Assembly: GCA_963760795.1 (NCBI GenBank)
Contig: CAVXEP010000020.1
Coordinates: forward strand, 1-64,000
Origin: an uncultured delta proteobacterium
GTDB taxonomy: Bacteria > Desulfobacterota > Binatia > UBA9968
Reading direction: 5' to 3'
DNA: 64,000 nt
The translations under genes and the position numbers were made by a program. Numbering within the stretch: position 1 is the first letter of the stretch; each line of letters begins with the position of its first letter. This document shows positions 3,858-58,637 of the stretch, piece by piece. Below the pieces are notes generated by a model. It saw only the letters and a program-made list of their open reading frames with translations. It was not told the origin of the DNA and ran no database searches.

Positions 3858-4006
3858 CAAGGTCTTGTCGCCAGATCTTGCAGAAATGACGGGCTATTTA
3901 TCTTGTAATTTGGTTAAAGCAGTAGCGGCAAAAAGAGCTGGACTTTTACCCGACTGGCTTAATCTGCGCGCTTCGAAACCTGTGCGCAACGCACCGGTGA
4001 AGGCAA

Positions 4007-4287
4007 ATGTTACCAAAAGAAATCCTGCCAAACTATGTTGCTTATTTTTCCATGGAAGTGGTCCTTGACTCGTTGATGCCAACTATAGCGGCGGCATCGG
4101 CATTCTTGCCGACGACACGTTGCGTGCGGCGGCCGACCTCGGACTGCCCATGATCGGCGTCACTTTGCTGCACCGCAAAGGCTATTTGCGTCAAACCCTG
4201 GACGCAGGTGGCAATCAAACCGAGAGTCCGGCGGGCTGGAACTACGAAGAAGTTTTGGCACCGATGGTGCCGCGCGCCCTAGCTTGA
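4007..4287 (+). pseudogene. glgP: N-terminal fragment of alpha-glucan (glycogen/starch) phosphorylase
   Basis: MLPKEILPNYVAYFSMEVVLDSLMP / (frameshift near 4083) YSGGIGILADDTLRAAADLGLPMIGVTLLHRKGYLRQTLD.., stop at 4285-4287; absent from the ORF track. Confidence 0.8.
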
Positions 4288-4346
4288 TCCCGGCAGGCCG
4301 ATCTTCTAGATTAAGTCTCCATTCATTCGACCCAGTAAAAGAAATC

Positions 4347-7300
4347 ATGTCCATCCACGTTGCGCTTCATCACGTCACCCACTACCACTACGACCGGCGG
4401 ATCACTCTTGGACCGCAGGTTCTGCGCCTGCGTCCGGCGCCGCACTGCCGCACCCGCATCTTAAGTTATTCACTGAAGATCTTGCCCAAAGAGCATTTCA
4501 TTAATTGGCAGCAGGACCCGCAGGCGAACTATTCAGCGCGTCTGGTGTTTAACCAGACAACGACCGAATTTCGTATCGAGGTCGATCTGGTCGCTGAGAT
4601 GGCGGTGATCAATCCCTTCGATTTTTTTCTTGAGCCCTATGCCGAGAATTATCCGTTCGAGTACGAGTCTTGGCAACAAAATGAGCTCGGGCCATACGTC
4701 AAGCGCGAGCCGGTTACGCCGCTTTTCGAGCGTTATCTGGGGGCAATTCCGCGCGAGCCCAAGCGCTGTGTCGATTTTCTCGTCAGCTTGAACGCGCAAT
4801 TGGCGCGCGACGTGCGATATTTAATTCGCCTTGAACCGGGCGTGCAAACGCCCGAAGAAACCCTCGTCAAAGGTTCGGGCTCTTGCCGGGATTCTGCTTG
4901 GCTGCTCGTACAACTGCTGCGCCATTTAGGACTGGCGGCGCGCTTTGTCTCGGGCTACTTGATTCAACTCACCGCCGATGTGAAGTCCCTCGACGGCCCT
5001 GCCGGTCCGGAAAAGGATTTCACCGATTTGCACGCCTGGGCCGAAGTTTATCTGCCGGGCGCGGGTTGGATCGGTCTCGACCCGACCTCTGGCTTGTTCG
5101 CCGGCGAAGGTCATTTGCCGCTCGCCTGCACGCCCGAGCCGGGATCGGCTTCTCCGGTGACCGGCGTGATCGACGAATGCAAAGTAGATTTTTCCCATGA
5201 AATGTCGGTCACCAGGATCTGGGAAGCGCCGCGCGTCACCAAGCCCTACACCGAGGAACAGTGGCAAGCCATCGACCGGCTCGGTCATGCCGTCGATGTC
5301 GACCTGAAGGAAAACGATGTCAGACTCACCATGGGCGGCGAACCGACTTTTGTCTCGATGGACGATCCAGAGGGCGAAGAGTGGAGCACCGCGGCGCTCG
5401 GCCCGAACAAACGACGGCTCGCAGCGGAGGTTTATCAGCGCCTGCGGGCTCGCTACGGCGCTCAAGGCCTGGTTCATTTCGGCCAGGGCAAATGGTATCC
5501 CGGCGAGCAACTGCCGCGCTGGTCGCTCAATTGCTATTGGCGCGCCGACGGCGAACCCATCTGGCGCAATGATTGGTTAATCGCCGACGAGACCCAAGCC
5601 GGGAATGCAACAGCTGAACTCGCAAGTAAGTTTCTCCAAGGCGTAGCCCATCGACTGGGGTTGGACGACCAAGATATTTTCCCGGCATACGAAGACCTGT
5701 TTTACTACCTCTGGCGCGAGCGCCGCTTGCCTGCCAACGTCGATCCATTCGATTCACGGCTCGAAGATCCGCTCGAACGCGAGCGACTCACGCGCATATT
5801 CAGTCAAGGCCTAAAACAGGTTGTCGGTTATGCCCTGCCGGTGGCGCGCGATCCGCGCACAGAACGTTGGCGCAGCGGACAGTGGTTTTTGCGCGGCGAG
5901 CACTGCTACCTCGTTCCCGGTGACTCGGCCATGGGCTATCGGCTACCGTTAGACTCGTTGCCGTGGACCAGCGCCAATGACTATCCCTATATTTTTCCAC
6001 CGGATCCCACCCGGCCGCTGCCACCGCTTGCGACTCACGGGCAAATTCGCTTTCTAGTTGACGCAGGCAAGCCCGTGGATAGCACAGCATCGAGGCTCGA
6101 CAGCGGCGGTGGGCAGCGGATTAATAGCGAGCGCGCTCCCGGCAAACACGAAAGCGCGCCATGGATCTCGCGCACCGCAATCTGCGCCGAAGCGAGAAAC
6201 GGCGTGCTTTACATCTTCATGCCGCCGACCGCCGCCCTGGAAGATTATCTCGAACTCGTTGCCGCCGTGGAAGCGACCGCGGAAGCGCTAAATCAGCCGA
6301 TTATGTTCGAAGGCTACGAGCCGCCGCGCGATCCGCGCCTGCCGCACTTTCGCATCACTCCCGACCCGGGCGTGATCGAGGTCAATATTCATCCTTCATC
6401 GAGTTGGGCCGAGTCAAGCGAACAGACGGCGTTTCTCTACGAAACGGCGCGCCAGTCGCGTCTATCGACGGAAAAATTCATGATCGACGGCCGCCACACC
6501 GGCACCGGAGGCGGCAATCATTTCGCCCTCGGCGGCGCCACGCCGGCGGATTCGCCCTGGCTTAGGCGGCCGGATCTGTTGCGCAGTTTTTTAAGCTACT
6601 GGCATAATCATCCGTCGTTATCTTATCTTTTCAGCGGGCTGTTCATCGGCCCGACCTCGCAAGCGCCGCGCATCGACGAAGCGCGCAACGATTCGCTGCG
6701 GGAACTCGAAGTGGCGTTCCGCGAATTAGAACGGCGCCTGGAGGCGAACCGTGACGATTGCCCGCCCTGGCTGATCGACCGGCTGCTGCGCCATCTGCTC
6801 ATCGACGTCACCGGCAACACCCATCGCGCCGAGTTTTGCATCGACAAACTCTATTCGCCCGACAGCGCCACCGGGCGCTTGGGATTGCTGGAGATGCGCG
6901 CCTTTGAGATGCCGCCGCACGCGCGCATGAGCCTGACCCAACAGTTGTTGATTCGGGCGCTGATCGCGCGCTTCTGGAAGACCCCATACGCGCCGCCGCG
7001 TTTAGCCCGCTTGGGCATGGAACTGCACGACCGCTTTCTGCTGCCGCATTTCATTTGGCTCGATTTTGCCGACGTGATCACCGAGTTGAATCAAGCCGGT
7101 TATGGCTTCGATGCCGGCTGGTTTGCGCCGCACTTCGAATTCCGCTTTCCCAAGTACGGCGACTTTGCCGTTCGCGGTATCGAGCTGGAATTGCGCGCCG
7201 CCCTCGAGCCGTGGCATGTGCTGGGCGAAGAGGGCGCCCCTGGCGGCACGGCGCGCTACGTCGATTCGTCGCTGGAAAGAGTCCAGGTCAAAGTGACCGG

Positions 7301-35951: not shown

Positions 35952-36068
35952 TCCAAGTTTAAGTCCGGCGCAATAAACCTGGATCCCCGCGTGCGCGGGA
36001 ATACCGAATTCGCGCGTCACCTTCATCTATCGCCTGCCTGTAACGCAACGACACCTTAACACACACCG

Positions 36069-40471: not shown

Positions 40472-41011
40472 ATGAGCAAACTACCCAACGCGACACGCGA
40501 AGGACTTTCCGCAGAGCAGCTGAAAATCTGGGACCGAATCTTCGAGGGTCGCACCGGCGGCGGCGGTCCTTACTCCATGCTGATGCACTCGCCGGAGATG
40601 GCACAGCACTTCGCCGCCACCGAAGACTACTTTCGCAACCATTCGCTCCTGCCCGATGCCGACCGCGAGATCATCATCCTCACCGCTGCCCGCGAAGTAA
40701 GCGCCCACTACGCCTGGACGCGCCACGAAATCCGCGCTCACAAAGTCGGCATCATGCCGGAAACGATCGAAGCGCTGCGCGCCCATGCCGACGCCGACAA
40801 ATTCACCGGCAAAGAAAGACTGCTGGTGGAATTTACCCGCACGCTGATGAACCAACATGAGCTACCCGAAGAATTGTTCGCACGGATGGAAAAGGAGTTC
40901 GGCAAGGCAAAGTTTATCGAAGCCGTCGGCCTGCTCGGCCACTACATCACCATCGGCACAGTGATAAGAATGTTCGACGTCAGACCGCCGGCGGGAAGTA
41001 AGACTTTCTAA
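40472..41011 (+). CDS. CMD-like protein, tandem paralogue
   Basis: GGGPYSMLMHSP, REIIILTAARE, YAWTRHE. Confidence 0.87.
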   Translation: MSKLPNATREGLSAEQLKIWDRIFEGRTGGGGPYSMLMHSPEMAQHFAATEDYFRNHSLLPDADREIIILTAAREVSAHYAWTRHEIRAHKVGIMPETIEALRAHADADKFTGKERLLVEFTRTLMNQHELPEELFARMEKEFGKAKFIEAVGLLGHYITIGTVIRMFDVRPPAGSKTF

Positions 41012-50354: not shown

Positions 50355-50825
50355 TTCACCACGAAGTGTTCATGATCTTACGCTCGCCTACAGAATATGA
50401 AAATGGTTGGGATTCCCTCCATACGCGGTCTGCTTGACGCGTCGTTCCCGCGCACGCGGGAATCCAGGTTTGATCTGCGCCAAATTAGCCTGGATACCCG
50501 CTTTCGCGGGTATGACGGAACCAACGTTTCCTCTTCATTGTGGAGACCCTCACCTTACATGTATTTTCTAAGGAGGGGCACGAAGAACACGAAGGTTTCG
50601 GAGAATAATTATTCCGAACTTCGTGCTCTTCGTGTCCTTCGTGGTGAATACAATCTTGCTACTCTGCGCCATTACGACGGGCGTATACCATACGCCCCGA
50701 CAAACCTGAACGGTGCGTACAGCGCACCCTACGAAGACTTACCTTTGCGCCTTGGCGCCTTTGCGCGAGATATTCCGATTGCCTTGATTCTCTTTATGCG
50801 CCCTTTGCGTTCTTTGCGGCCAATC
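50355..50825. repeat. Large REP/MITE mosaic
   Basis: Segment 50371-50522 homologous to 56599-56750, nested between CACGAAG repeat units, plus GGGCGTATACCATACGCCC and GGTGCGTACAGCGCACCCTAC palindromes. Confidence 0.8.
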
Positions 50826-55321: not shown

Positions 55322-55448
55322 GTTCGCACCCTTTAGTAACTTATGACTAACCGCGGCAATGCGGATCGAGCACGAGCACGTCGTTAAAGCCGGCCATTGA
55401 CATCGTTGGCACCGCCATTTAACAATCCGCCCGAACCAAGGAGAGCTT

Positions 55449-55937
55449 ATGCCTAAAGTCACATCCCTCGGACATCTGGGTTTTCATGTGCGCGATATGG
55501 AACGCTCGGTGGCGTTCTACCGCGACATTCTCGGTTTAACCGTCAGCGACCGCAGCCCGCGCGGCGCCGTGTTCATGACCAGCCAAGATCGCAGCGTCGA
55601 GCACCACGAGCTCTACTTGGCGCCGGGGCGCGACGACGACGGCAAGGTCAACGTCTTGCAGCAGATTTCCTTCCGCTGTCCGACGTTGAAGGATGTCAAG
55701 GATTTCTATCAGCTATTCGTCGACAAGCAGGTGCCGATCAACCGCTGCGTCAGTCATGGCAACACCGTCAGCATCTACGCCAGCGACCCCGACGGCAACT
55801 CGGTGGAAGTCTACTGGCCGAGCGGCGTCGACGTGCCGCAACCCTTCGGCAAACCGATGGACTTGACCAAAAGCGAGGTGGAAATCCGCGAACAGCTCAA
55901 TCAGATCCTGACAGAGTGGCAAAACCAAACTTCATAA
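55449..55937 (+). CDS. VOC/glyoxalase family protein
   Basis: LGHLGFHVRD..FYRDILG, EHHEL, HGNTVSIY..DPDGNSVEVY. Confidence 0.9.
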   Translation: MPKVTSLGHLGFHVRDMERSVAFYRDILGLTVSDRSPRGAVFMTSQDRSVEHHELYLAPGRDDDGKVNVLQQISFRCPTLKDVKDFYQLFVDKQVPINRCVSHGNTVSIYASDPDGNSVEVYWPSGVDVPQPFGKPMDLTKSEVEIREQLNQILTEWQNQTS

Positions 55938-55993
55938 AACCCGCTCTCAAGAATAATTAACAATCGGCGAGCCCAGAAGTCATTGGAGACGTT

Positions 55994-56563
55994 ATGCCGC
56001 GTATTCCCTACGTTGACCCGGATAAAGTTACCGACCCAGAGATCAAGGGCTATCTGGAGCGCGCTCGCCGTGAAGGCACGCCGCGCCCTGAAAGCCAGGC
56101 CGTGCGAGCCAACGTCCCCGAGGTCATCCGCGCGTTCTCGCAGGCGTGGGAACTCACGTTCCGCAACGGCGTCGTCGACCACGCGCTCAAAGAGCTTTGC
56201 CGGGTTTACGTTTCGAAATCGATTGACTGTCAATATTGAGGCGTGCAGCGCTCCGTCCAGGCTGGACGGCAAGGGCTCATTGAAGCGAAGTATGATGAGT
56301 TGCTCAACTTCGCCGACTCGGACAAATTCACCGAGCGAGAAAAAGTCGCGCTAACCTACACCAGCGCGATCGCTTGGAACTCAGACATCGCCGACGACGC
56401 GCTCTGGGCAAAATTGCACCGACTTTTTTCGACTCCCGAGTTGGTCGAGCTCGGTTTTTTCATCGGCCTCACCCTCGGCCAACAGCGCTGGATCAAAACC
56501 CTCGGCATCGACCATGGCGCCGTACTCGGCGATACCACCGCCGGTCTCGCGCCGACGAACTAA
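55994..56563 (+). CDS. AhpD/CMD-like selenoprotein (CxxU; Sec at TGA 56237-56239)
   Basis: Two in-frame ORFs joined by TGT CAA TAT TGA GGC = C-Q-Y-U-G; FTEREKVAL and FSTPELVELG in the second half; SECIS-like hairpin at 56253-56269. Confidence 0.9.
56253..56269 (+). promoter_or_regulatory. Putative SECIS element
   Basis: CCGUCCA-GGC-UGGACGG perfect stem; CAGGCTG begins 18 nt after the UGA. Confidence 0.8.
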
Positions 56564-56598
56564 GCGGAGAAAAACATTCATCTCGCCACCGAATTGTC

Positions 56599-56870
56599 CA
56601 TGAACTTGCGCTCGCCTACAGAGCATGGAAATGGTTCGCATCCCAGAACATGCTCCCCTCGTCGATTCGTCATTCCGGCGCTCGCGGGAATCCAGGTTTG
56701 GTCGGCGCCCGATTAGCCTGGATACCCGCTTTCGCGGGTATGACGGAACCCAGGCGGCTCTTCGTCGTGCATCCCACTCCTGGATGCCGGCCTGGGCACG
56801 AATGACGAATTCGGAATGAATACCTCGGAGGCTTCGGTATCTTCATACTCTATACGAGCGCAAGCTCATG
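56599..56870. mobile_element. MITE-like non-autonomous element with ~32-bp imperfect TIRs
   Basis: Left CATGAACTTGCGCTCGCCTACAGAGCATGGAAAT vs reverse complement of right CATGAGCTTGCGCTCGTATAGAGTATGAAGAT; internal REP hairpins. Confidence 0.6.
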
Positions 56871-56947: not shown

Positions 56948-58637
56948 TCACAAACGCTCACCGCCGACTGAGCGCGACCGTTCAGCGATTTGCGAAACAT
57001 CGTCCAGCGCATAAATCGCTAGCGCTTCGCGCCGGTTGCGCACGGTAAGTTCGTGGCGCGGCAGGCTGGCCGTGTTCAACCCCGACTGCTTGGCGACTTC
57101 TGCCGAGATCACCAACTGACAGTGAAACTCCTTGGTCGCATCTTGCAGCCGGCTGGCGACGTTGACCGTATCACCGATAGCGGTGACGTGAATCGTTTCG
57201 CCGTAGCCCATGCGCCCTACCACCGCCGGGCCGCAGTGAATGCCGATGCCAATGCGCAGTGGCGCGCTGAGTTCTTCTGCGAGTGCTCCGCTGAGCTCGT
57301 CGACCCGCTTAATCATCACCTGGGCAGCGGCGAGCGCTTGGCGGCAGCCTTCTTCGGGTCCGCTTTCGACGCCGAACAGCGCCATCACACCGTCACCGAC
57401 GAATTTGTCGATGATGCCGCCGCTCGAGACGATTGCCGCACCGACGGCGGTGAAATAGCTGTTCAAGAAAAACACTAAATCGTAAGGCAGTTTGGTTTCA
57501 GCGATGCCGGTAAACGAGCGAATATCCGCGAACATCACGGCGATCATGCGCTCCTGGCCGGCGAGATAGGCCGGTTGCCCATACCCCGCACTCGCCTGAG
57601 CATGGGGCGGCAGGAGCGGCGTCACCGTGAGATTATTCGTCGGCCGCAGCTGGCAGGCCAGTCGAACATCGGGCGCGGCGCCGACGCGCTGCAAGACTTT
57701 CAACTCGCCGGCAGCCGGCGGCGGCAAATTGGCAGCGCCATGAGTGACCCGCACCCGGCACGTCGAGCAGCGCCCGCGACCGCCGCAAACCGAAGCATGG
57801 GGGATCGCCGCTAGACGGCTCGCTTCGAGGACGGAGAAATTGCGCGGCGCCTGCACCTCCCGGCCATTGGGATACGTAATGCGGATGCGGCTGCGCCGCT
57901 CGATCAAGCTGCGCGCAACCGCGCGCTATGAGCGCCAAGACGATCGCCGCGCCGAACGTTATCAGCACGCCGTCATAGATCTGGTACAACACCGCTCGCT
58001 GGCTGCGCGGCGGCACTTTCGCAGCCACAAGGAAGCGCTCGAGCCATTCCGGCTGGCGCGCGATCAGGTTGGACACTTCCCGACCGGCACCGACGAAACC
58101 CAACAGCCCGCACACCGGGATAAGCAACGCCAGGGTGAGCAGGTAGGGCGCGATGCGCGGATACCATTTCTTCAATCGCAGCCAGTAGTGGCAGCCGATA
58201 CAGCCATGGGTCCAGGCGATGACAATCAGGATCGCCTGCTTCAATCCATCCATCGGCGCAGCATGCCAGAGGGTCAAAACCATCAAAGTGTAGGAATCGT
58301 CGACGCCAAAAAATTCATGGGTGAGCCGGGTGCCGACGATATGGATCGTCAGCAATAGCGGGATGGTCAAACCGAATAACAGTTGCAGCACCTCGGCCAC
58401 CGGCATGCGCCAATGGCGCCGCTGGTACAGCGCCCAAATCGCCAAGCCTAAGTGAGTCAATAACGCGCTGTAAAGAATCGCCGTGCCGACGGGATTGCGC
58501 CACAAAAGCAAAAACCAGCCACGCCCCCACTCCATCGCCGCCAACGAAATCAAGCCGAGCGCATGATTGAGCAAATGCGTCGACAAATAGGTGAGCAGAA
58601 TTAGCCCCGTAACCAAACGTGTGCGCCGAACGTTCAT
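56948..58637 (-). CDS. Membrane adenylate/guanylate cyclase with His-rich TM region and 2Fe-2S ferredoxin domain, CyaC-like (frameshift near 57915)
   Basis: THLLNH, HIVGTR, WTHGCIG; CGGRGRCSTC..RLACQ; FADIRSFT, DKFVGDGVMA, GDTVNVASRL. Confidence 0.88.

Follow-up and report, generated by a model that had tools for sequence, protein, structure and literature searches.

A probable AhpD-like selenoprotein gene with a conserved in-frame UGA in an uncultured Binatia bacterium

The window analysed here is a stretch of 64,000 nucleotides from contig CAVXEP010000020.1 of an uncultured delta proteobacterium (Binatia; GenBank assembly GCA_963760795.1), and the gene in question is an AhpD-like gene with an in-frame TGA at 55994-56563 on the forward strand. 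Two open reading frames (ORFs) were found at this position, 55994-56239 (81 codons and the TGA) and 56243-56563. They share one frame and are parted only by the TGA at 56237-56239 and a GGC codon at 56240-56242. Taken together they form a single frame of 189 codons, interrupted solely by this TGA, from an ATG at 55994 to a TAA stop at 56561-56563. A GGAG at 55985-55988, 5 nt ahead of the ATG, was read from the sequence as the ribosome-binding site. Read-through translation gave a protein of 189 residues with the junction ...YVSKSIDCQY-U-GVQRSVQAGRQG..., which places the TGA in the motif C79-Q-Y-U82 (TGT CAA TAT TGA, 56228-56239) of an active-site stretch E67-x11-C79-x-x-U82-G-V-Q85-R86-S87. 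Coordinates, common frame and length of the read-through product agree with an initial annotation of this locus, as does the 56-nt gap to an upstream VOC gene. With high confidence, the locus is interpreted as one complete gene encoding a thiol-selenol oxidoreductase of 189 residues with the AhpD/CMD fold and the motif C79-x-x-U82, in which UGA is decoded as selenocysteine (Sec).

The read-through protein matched the Pfam family CMD (PF02627) across the TGA, at residues 42-123, with 25.2 bits against a cut-off of 23. Both halves had been described as AhpD/CMD-like in the initial annotation. This was found to be true of the read-through protein, but neither half gave any match when scanned separately against Pfam. 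The two halves are equally conserved in the 80 related genome loci described below, with 70-100% identity before and 69-98% after the TGA. An AlphaFold2 model built on a 30-sequence alignment was all-helical, with a predicted local distance difference test score of 86.1 and a predicted template modelling score of 0.82. A Foldseek search with the model returned 21 PDB chains at E <= 0.001. The 18 best-ranked rows were all AhpD/CMD-type proteins, and those with E <= 0.001 had template modelling (TM) scores of 0.62-0.76. The best AhpD-core matches of similar length were Bmp8 (6ohj, 0.76), 6k40 (the AhpD of D. radiodurans, 0.76), 2prr (0.75), 2oyo (0.74) and 2pfx (0.73); the shorter PA0269 and Atu0492 matched as well. 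Two separate small genes of 81 and 106 residues, lying in the same frame by coincidence, could be considered given the GTG located 3 nt past the TGA. However, domain and predicted fold both cross the junction, the homologues with Cys in place of the TGA are single uninterrupted proteins of about 190-200 residues, and the sole purine-rich stretch (GAGG) ends one base ahead of the GTG, too near to serve as a ribosome-binding site. Together with the missing Pfam match for either half, this leaves the two-gene arrangement with next to no credibility.

A word-indexed protein search identified 5573 relatives at E <= 0.001. Two sets of related loci were read as DNA, namely the best 80 loci of species-representative genomes and the best 80 of a metagenome scan that started from a W-type record, that is, a protein record with tryptophan at the column of the TGA. 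The 80 genome loci hold 81 gene copies, locus L063 having two, and the Sec-type copies amount to 165 in total, of which at least three are the same genes fetched twice. TGA was present at the column in all 160 related loci (80/80 in genomes and 80/80 in metagenomes). Among the 118 best motif-bearing protein records 108 have Cys at this column. Eight more distant Cys forms from Actinomycetota samples were verified as TGC or TGT at the DNA level. The TGA had been placed at the second Cys of the CxxC motif in the initial annotation, with Cys or TGA expected in homologues, and this is what the junction SIDCQY-U-GVQRS and its alignment showed. Contigs from independent sequencing also retained the TGA: Logan DNA contigs from two soil studies, X1 (56144-56588) and X3 (55913-56584), span it with no difference listed at 56237-56239. 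In addition the metatranscriptome contig X15 (269 nt, 56017-56285) bridges the TGA unchanged, with flanks of 220 and 46 nt, and differs from the window by two letters, at 56158 and 56161.

A hairpin was found downstream of the TGA. In the window CCGUCCA (56253-56259), GGC and UGGACGG (56263-56269) follow each other, beginning 13 nt after the UGA, and the perfect 7-bp stem with a G-containing loop reported earlier is indeed present. Its conserved form, regarded as a bacterial selenocysteine insertion sequence (SECIS), is a 6-bp stem (56253-56258 with 56264-56269) closed by the loop A-G-G-C-U (56259-56263), and this segment of 56253-56269 on the forward strand encodes S-V-Q-A-G-R. The extra A-U pair of the window sequence extends the stem to 7 bp and reduces the loop to GGC. 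Alignment A2, consisting of the window and 80 copies, was used for RNAalifold and for pair counts. RNAalifold gave the 6-bp stem with a 5-nt loop, all 6 x 81 cells being intact and the loop GG invariant. Compensatory changes were observed at two stem pairs: in pair 2, C-G (73 rows) is replaced by U-A in 7 rows, and in pair 4, U-A (76 rows) is replaced by C-G in 2 rows, a further 2 rows having U-G. In the 7-pair structure 97.9% of the cells were paired, compared to 15-42% after a shift of the 3' arm by 1-3 columns. The A-U pair that closes the loop as the seventh was missing in 12 rows and is therefore not required.

The hairpin distinguishes Sec forms from Cys forms. All six stem pairs were present in 165/165 Sec-type copies, as opposed to 0-4 of the six in the eight Cys forms, and the mean hairpin energies were -11.6 and -5.2 kcal/mol, respectively. 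Loops in the 165 copies were AGGCU (135), AGGCC (17), AGGCG (5), AGGGU (4), AGGGC (2), GGGCC (1) and AGGGG (1). Synonymous sites of the S-V-Q-A-G-R codons are fixed in the Sec forms while the peptide stretch varies freely in the Cys forms, which points to selection on the stem at the RNA level. The bSECIS model given in a 2026 review has a loop of 3-9 nt, a stem of 4-16 bp, a G in the first two loop positions, a UGA-to-loop distance of 16-37 nt and a minimum free energy of -7.5 or below (PMC13188914). The window hairpin fits this model with a 5-nt loop (AGGCU, N1-G-G-N-N2), a 6-bp stem, a distance of 19 nt and -10.3 kcal/mol. These results also bear on the possibility of a pseudogene, in which TGC or TGT had mutated to TGA and only a fragment of 81 residues was made. 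A single base change would be enough for this, and standard gene calling does yield two fragments. But all 160 related loci, which come from many lineages, have the same TGA; the frame is open and the protein conserved downstream of it, and the hairpin past it is co-conserved with compensatory changes. Because TGA, downstream frame and hairpin are all conserved, the pseudogene explanation is effectively refuted.

The machinery required for Sec insertion was detected in the source genome (35 contigs, 6.58 Mb, 89% complete), and all four of the genes selA, selB, selC and selD that had been named for such a check were above their cut-offs. selA (612.2 bits), selB (410.5 bits) and selD (378.6 bits, with an in-frame TGA of its own) are clustered on contig C11. 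The tRNA-Sec is found on contig C13 (76.7 bits), with the anticodon TCA according to ARAGORN. selA was also above the cut-off in five out of five other genomes carrying the selenoprotein gene, from different lineages by label. In the proposed decoding, SelB with Sec-tRNA(Sec) would bind the hairpin 13 nt downstream of the UGA and deliver Sec to the ribosome. TGA is otherwise a usual stop in the window, where it terminates 17 of 36 long non-overlapping ORFs, so no genome-wide reassignment of TGA has taken place and the code is standard. The conserved TGA, the Cys homologues, the covarying hairpin and the Sec machinery in the genome all support the central proposal of the initial annotation, and the UGA at 56237-56239 is very probably, with little room for doubt, read as Sec.

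Some observations weigh against this interpretation. Folding of the 64 nt after the UGA was unremarkable (z = -0.33, with 75 of 200 shuffled sequences folding as well), so that the single-sequence fold energy is not above chance and the weight of the hairpin rests on the comparison with relatives. Contigs from RNA libraries cover the gene only in parts, and contig X15 falls short of proving transcription; such libraries can contain DNA, and X15 is taken as a hint of transcription, not as proof. Ten of the 118 protein records show W at the column, all of them gene calls of the Joint Genome Institute (JGI), and their DNA was not among the fetched loci. Finally, selD carries an additional base in the assembly, 9-12 nt ahead of its own Sec codon.

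The W records could mean that UGA is recoded or read through as Trp, Cys, Gly or Arg without selenium, by an altered code or by near-cognate suppression. They are close homologues of the window protein and are the observation in favour of such recoding. However, TGG occurred at the column in none of the 165 related gene copies read as DNA, all of which have TGA, and more distant homologues carry Cys, not Trp. All ten W records carry SV[QR][AG]G[RQ], the translation of the hairpin, as would be expected of TGA genes under translation table 4. None of the ten was encoded exactly by the 173 fetched loci when these were translated with table 4, and the metagenome scan seeded with one W record gave relatives of at most 85% identity. 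Since TGG was not observed in any copy and the hairpin-encoded peptide is present in the records, W is most likely a TGA translated as Trp by the gene caller. Homologues with a genuine Trp, which would have spoken against Sec, were thus not seen in DNA. Considering also the standard code of the window and the full Sec machinery of the genome, decoding without selenium is regarded as highly improbable.

The extra base in selD raises a different possibility, that of a true selenoprotein gene which is functionally dead in this strain. If the frameshift is real, the strain would be without selenophosphate and Sec insertion would fail. The extra base lies at L001:2395-2445, corresponding to about 2842-2892 on the minus strand of contig C11 of the source genome (G000), where the sequence reads AAAAGCCGCGGG. 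The N-terminus of selD, MMLGKKNAVRLTQSVK (first 16 codons), is out of frame with the remainder (AAG-U-AAKLGPGDL...), and the downstream frame has no start codon. On the other hand, selD was in frame in ten out of ten relatives of the same genus, with either AAAAGCGCGGG or AAAGCCGCGGG at this position, and AAAAGCCGCGGG resembles a blend of these two variants, as would be expected of a consensus error where strains are mixed in an assembly. For both of these reasons the frameshift is probably such an error. Neither the selenoprotein gene nor the remaining selD shows decay, and loss of function in this strain is considered very unlikely. Decoding of UGA as Sec remains the preferred explanation.

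With respect to function, AhpD proteins have the signature E-x11-C-x-x-C-x-x-x-H, and in M. tuberculosis AhpD, a CxxC-based reductant of peroxiredoxin, the second Cys of the motif is the nucleophile. Sec at the second motif position therefore fits the mechanism. By analogy with the family, the U82 selenolate would be the attacking nucleophile on an oxidised substrate, either a hydroperoxide or the sulfenic acid or disulfide of a partner. C79 would then resolve the U82 intermediate to a selenenylsulfide, and a cellular thiol system would re-reduce the C79/U82 pair. A peroxide or thiol-disulfide role of the protein is given about an even chance. Speaking against such a role, E67-x11-C79-x-x-U82 is present but the His of CxxCxxxH is replaced by Arg86, which is invariant in alignment A1. 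Furthermore, M. tuberculosis AhpD (1lw1) is a poor structural match (TM 0.44, E 1.4) although it belongs to the same superfamily, no peroxiredoxin (ahpC) gene adjoins the selenoprotein gene in the window, and AhpC/peroxiredoxin was found in 0 of 124 flanking ORFs of 65 related loci (E <= 1e-5).

A different function is suggested by the thiol-dependent tetrabromopyrrole debrominase Bmp8 (6ohi, 6ohj), which is the best structural match (TM 0.76 over 177 columns). Bmp8 has a similar length of 187 residues and a profile E-value of 1.6e-10, and its CMYC aligns with C-x-Y-U of the window protein; the two proteins share only 18-19% identity and Bmp8 is Cys-based. Because of this match, the clade may be a horizontally spread soil selenoenzyme distinct from peroxide-defence AhpD, such as a Sec-dependent reductive dehalogenase or another small-molecule reductase. 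The replacement of the AhpD histidine relay by Q85-R86-S87, the missing peroxiredoxin partner and the variable neighbourhoods could be cited in favour of a distinct enzyme. Bmp8 is encoded in a marine biosynthetic cluster for brominated pyrroles, and no such context was found around the window gene or in the flanks scanned at related loci. The dehalogenase or reductase explanation is considered very unlikely. If true, the enzyme would be a bacterial analogue of iodothyronine deiodinase, which is itself a selenoenzyme.

By profile, the closest solved structures are the single-domain AhpD-like proteins PA0269 of Pseudomonas aeruginosa (2ijc, 2o4d, 7xw1; E 1.1e-10) and Atu0492 (2gmy). Their CxxC aligns with C79/U82 and they share the same helical core, with target-normalised TM scores of 0.79-0.86. 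Unlike the window protein, they are about 145 residues long, contain Cys instead of Sec and have a His four residues past the second Cys where Arg86 is found here. The window protein has an additional N-terminal helical part of about 40 residues.

The initial annotation had called the gene hidden. In the sense of new this does not hold, as AhpD-like selenoproteins with CxxU are already known as an abundant family. AhpD-like CxxU selenoproteins (COG2128) were reported in 2005, with 27 sequences from the Sargasso Sea (PMC1088965). In the Global Ocean Sampling data AhpD-like ("AhpD-like 1", 2008) ranks fourth in number among the prokaryotic selenoprotein families, being represented by 299 Sec and 902 Cys forms, next to a second family, "AhpD-like 2", which matches pfam02627 (PMC2398784). 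Several AhpD-type Sec families with NCBIfam models are described in the 2026 review (PMC13188914). The window protein resembles the AhpD-like family (COG2128) in its CxxU motif with Sec in second position and belongs to the same superfamily. The sets of that family are marine while the window clade was found in metagenome-assembled genomes of soil and groundwater origin, a comparison made by description and marker model only. In the JGI records, homologues of the window protein bear the name "alkylhydroperoxidase family enzyme", which presumably points to COG2128. With TIGR01926, the marker of the review for the AhpD-like family, the window protein scored 25.3 bits and two relatives 23.0 and 37.7 bits, against a cut-off of 81.8. 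The best-scoring curated model was NF053654 ("GroundWater_YciW, YciW-related (seleno)protein"), likewise an AhpD-type family with Sec and Cys forms. Its alignment was near full length (protein 1-158 to model 1-157 of 179), but the score was 55.7 bits against a cut-off of 310, and a Cys-type and another Sec-type relative reached 59.9 and 60.3 bits. Judged by these scores, the window protein is related to the NF053654 family but is not a member. As the window protein and its relatives reach no curated NCBIfam cut-off, the gene is assigned from its sequence to an unmodelled subfamily of the known AhpD-like selenoprotein kind; it is a new member and not a new kind.

The main value of the finding is for annotation; the understanding of Sec insertion is unchanged and a specialist will find little surprise in it. 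Truncation at the Sec-UGA is described as a systematic annotation error in BSepDB (PMC13326102). Among the 150 best cluster representatives of the present family 16 end exactly at residue 81 and five begin at residue 84. The soil and groundwater clade is thus systematically mis-called, either by splitting at the UGA or, in the ten JGI records, by reading UGA as Trp. Automatic pipelines are probably without a model to rescue the gene, since no NCBIfam model reaches its cut-off. The module UGA-N13-CCGUCC-AGGCU-GGACGG would serve as a simple and specific search pattern for the recovery of such genes. The known AhpD-like selenoprotein family is at the same time extended from marine sets to Binatia-type and other soil lineages.

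Within the genus, the gene was present in 18 of 24 sampled genomes, all with TGA, or in 17 of 23 when the unpublished genome G409 is left out. In G409 (contig C152) and in G413 (contig C54), both of the same genus, the match to the gene is broken into two pieces that overlap and lie in different frames, a sign of a frameshift or an assembly error after about residue 100. In one genome of the same order a Cys form (54% identity) and a TGA form (47%) occur together. A phylum-wide draw gave a match in 2 of 401 genomes at E <= 1e-10, which says little because the gene is patchy. Close relatives with 73-98% identity are labelled Binatia, "delta proteobacterium", Rokuibacteriota, Actinomycetota, Chloroflexota, Burkholderiales, Armatimonadota and others. 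The SECIS hardly varies among these lineages, from Binatia to Armatimonadota. Such identity across differently labelled lineages suggests horizontal spread of the gene, with the reservation that the labels of metagenome-assembled genomes can be wrong. The locus with two copies, L063, is a contig labelled Syntrophobacteraceae on which two Sec-type copies (1087-1650 and about 3870-4430), each with TGA and hairpin, flank a gene of the MmgE/PrpD family.

A FastTree tree of 217 rows was calculated with the Sec/Cys column masked; it is a quick tree of a short protein. All 96 Sec or W rows fell into one clade (support 85) together with 20 protein records with Cys. The remaining 88 Cys records and all eight DNA-verified Cys forms were placed outside this clade, and the minimum number of Sec/Cys state changes was eight. 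The tree fits a single gain of Sec followed by several reversions, an explanation which is held loosely. Gain and reversion of Sec and Cys of this kind have been described (PMC1794560).

Other AhpD-like genes were encountered. A second one in the source genome, at about 110375-111019 of contig C5 (L101:1432-2076, minus strand), likewise contains an in-frame TGA, which falls in the motif INGC-P-Y-U-IDS. It encodes about 196 residues from the ATG, scored 161.6 bits with NF053654 (cut-off 310) and 33 bits with the AhpD core model TIGR00778 (cut-off 27.8), and has a small hairpin with a G-rich loop about 14 nt past the TGA. This gene is likely a second selenoprotein of the AhpD superfamily. In the window itself, a distant Cys-type paralogue without internal stop is located at 40580-40939 on the forward strand (22% identity, E 4.7e-7). 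In a genome of the same class an AhpD-like ORF with 33% identity (L102; G110:C1:1446617-1447081) has an in-frame TGA in C-A-L-U and appears to be a further branch of the superfamily that carries Sec.

The upstream VOC gene, of the glyoxalase fold, is found at 55449-55937 on the forward strand (Pfam PF00903, 1.8e-16). A sigma-70-like promoter match is located upstream of it at 55397-55426 (forward strand; 10 of 12 positions, a consensus match only), and neither a promoter-like site nor a terminator was found in the 56-nt gap. Co-transcription of the two genes, as proposed in the initial annotation, is therefore possible, but a link to the VOC gene is found in few relatives. A VOC homologue occurs in only 17 of the 80 related genome loci, all close relatives, and for six of these (L021, L022, L026, L027, L031 and L073) it lies 1.1-2.7 kb upstream with an intervening ORF, which is Amidohydro_2 in the three scanned loci L021, L022 and L027. 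Amidohydro_2 was also observed directly upstream of the selenoprotein gene in L049, L052, L053 and L055. The order murJ, VOC gene, selenoprotein gene and cyclase gene recurs only in the closest relatives (VOC 17/80, MurJ 12/80, downstream minus-strand gene 17/80). Since the pairing with VOC was found in these 17 loci only, VOC was rejected as a functional partner, and the pairing, going by gene order, is lineage-specific synteny and not a functional unit of the family. No conserved operon partner was found among the 124 flanking ORFs of 65 loci. The recurrent neighbours were Amidohydro_2 (7), 2-hydroxyacid dehydrogenase (4), luciferase-like monooxygenase (4), MmgE/PrpD (3), Ogt/Ada (3) and TctC (3).

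The convergent gene downstream, at 56948-57907 on the minus strand, encodes 319 residues and appears by eye to combine a 2Fe-2S ferredoxin with a class III nucleotide cyclase; it is the gene syntenic in 17 of the 80 loci. Inside the coding region of the selenoprotein gene a terminator-like hairpin with a T-run was noted at 56436-56454 on the forward strand. It sits within the conserved PELVELGFF codons and was dismissed as probably a chance match. A G+C-rich palindromic repeat, TTCCSGCGCWCGCGGGRATCCAGG, occurs three times in the window with none expected, at 56673-56696 and 50445-50468 on the forward strand and at 35978-36001 on the minus strand. In the soil metagenome contig X3 the summed depth at 56675-56776 was about 440-480, compared to about 7 over the gene. 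Three copies where none is expected, together with this very high depth, suggest an intergenic repeat similar to repetitive extragenic palindromes (REP), with a wide distribution among soil bacteria.

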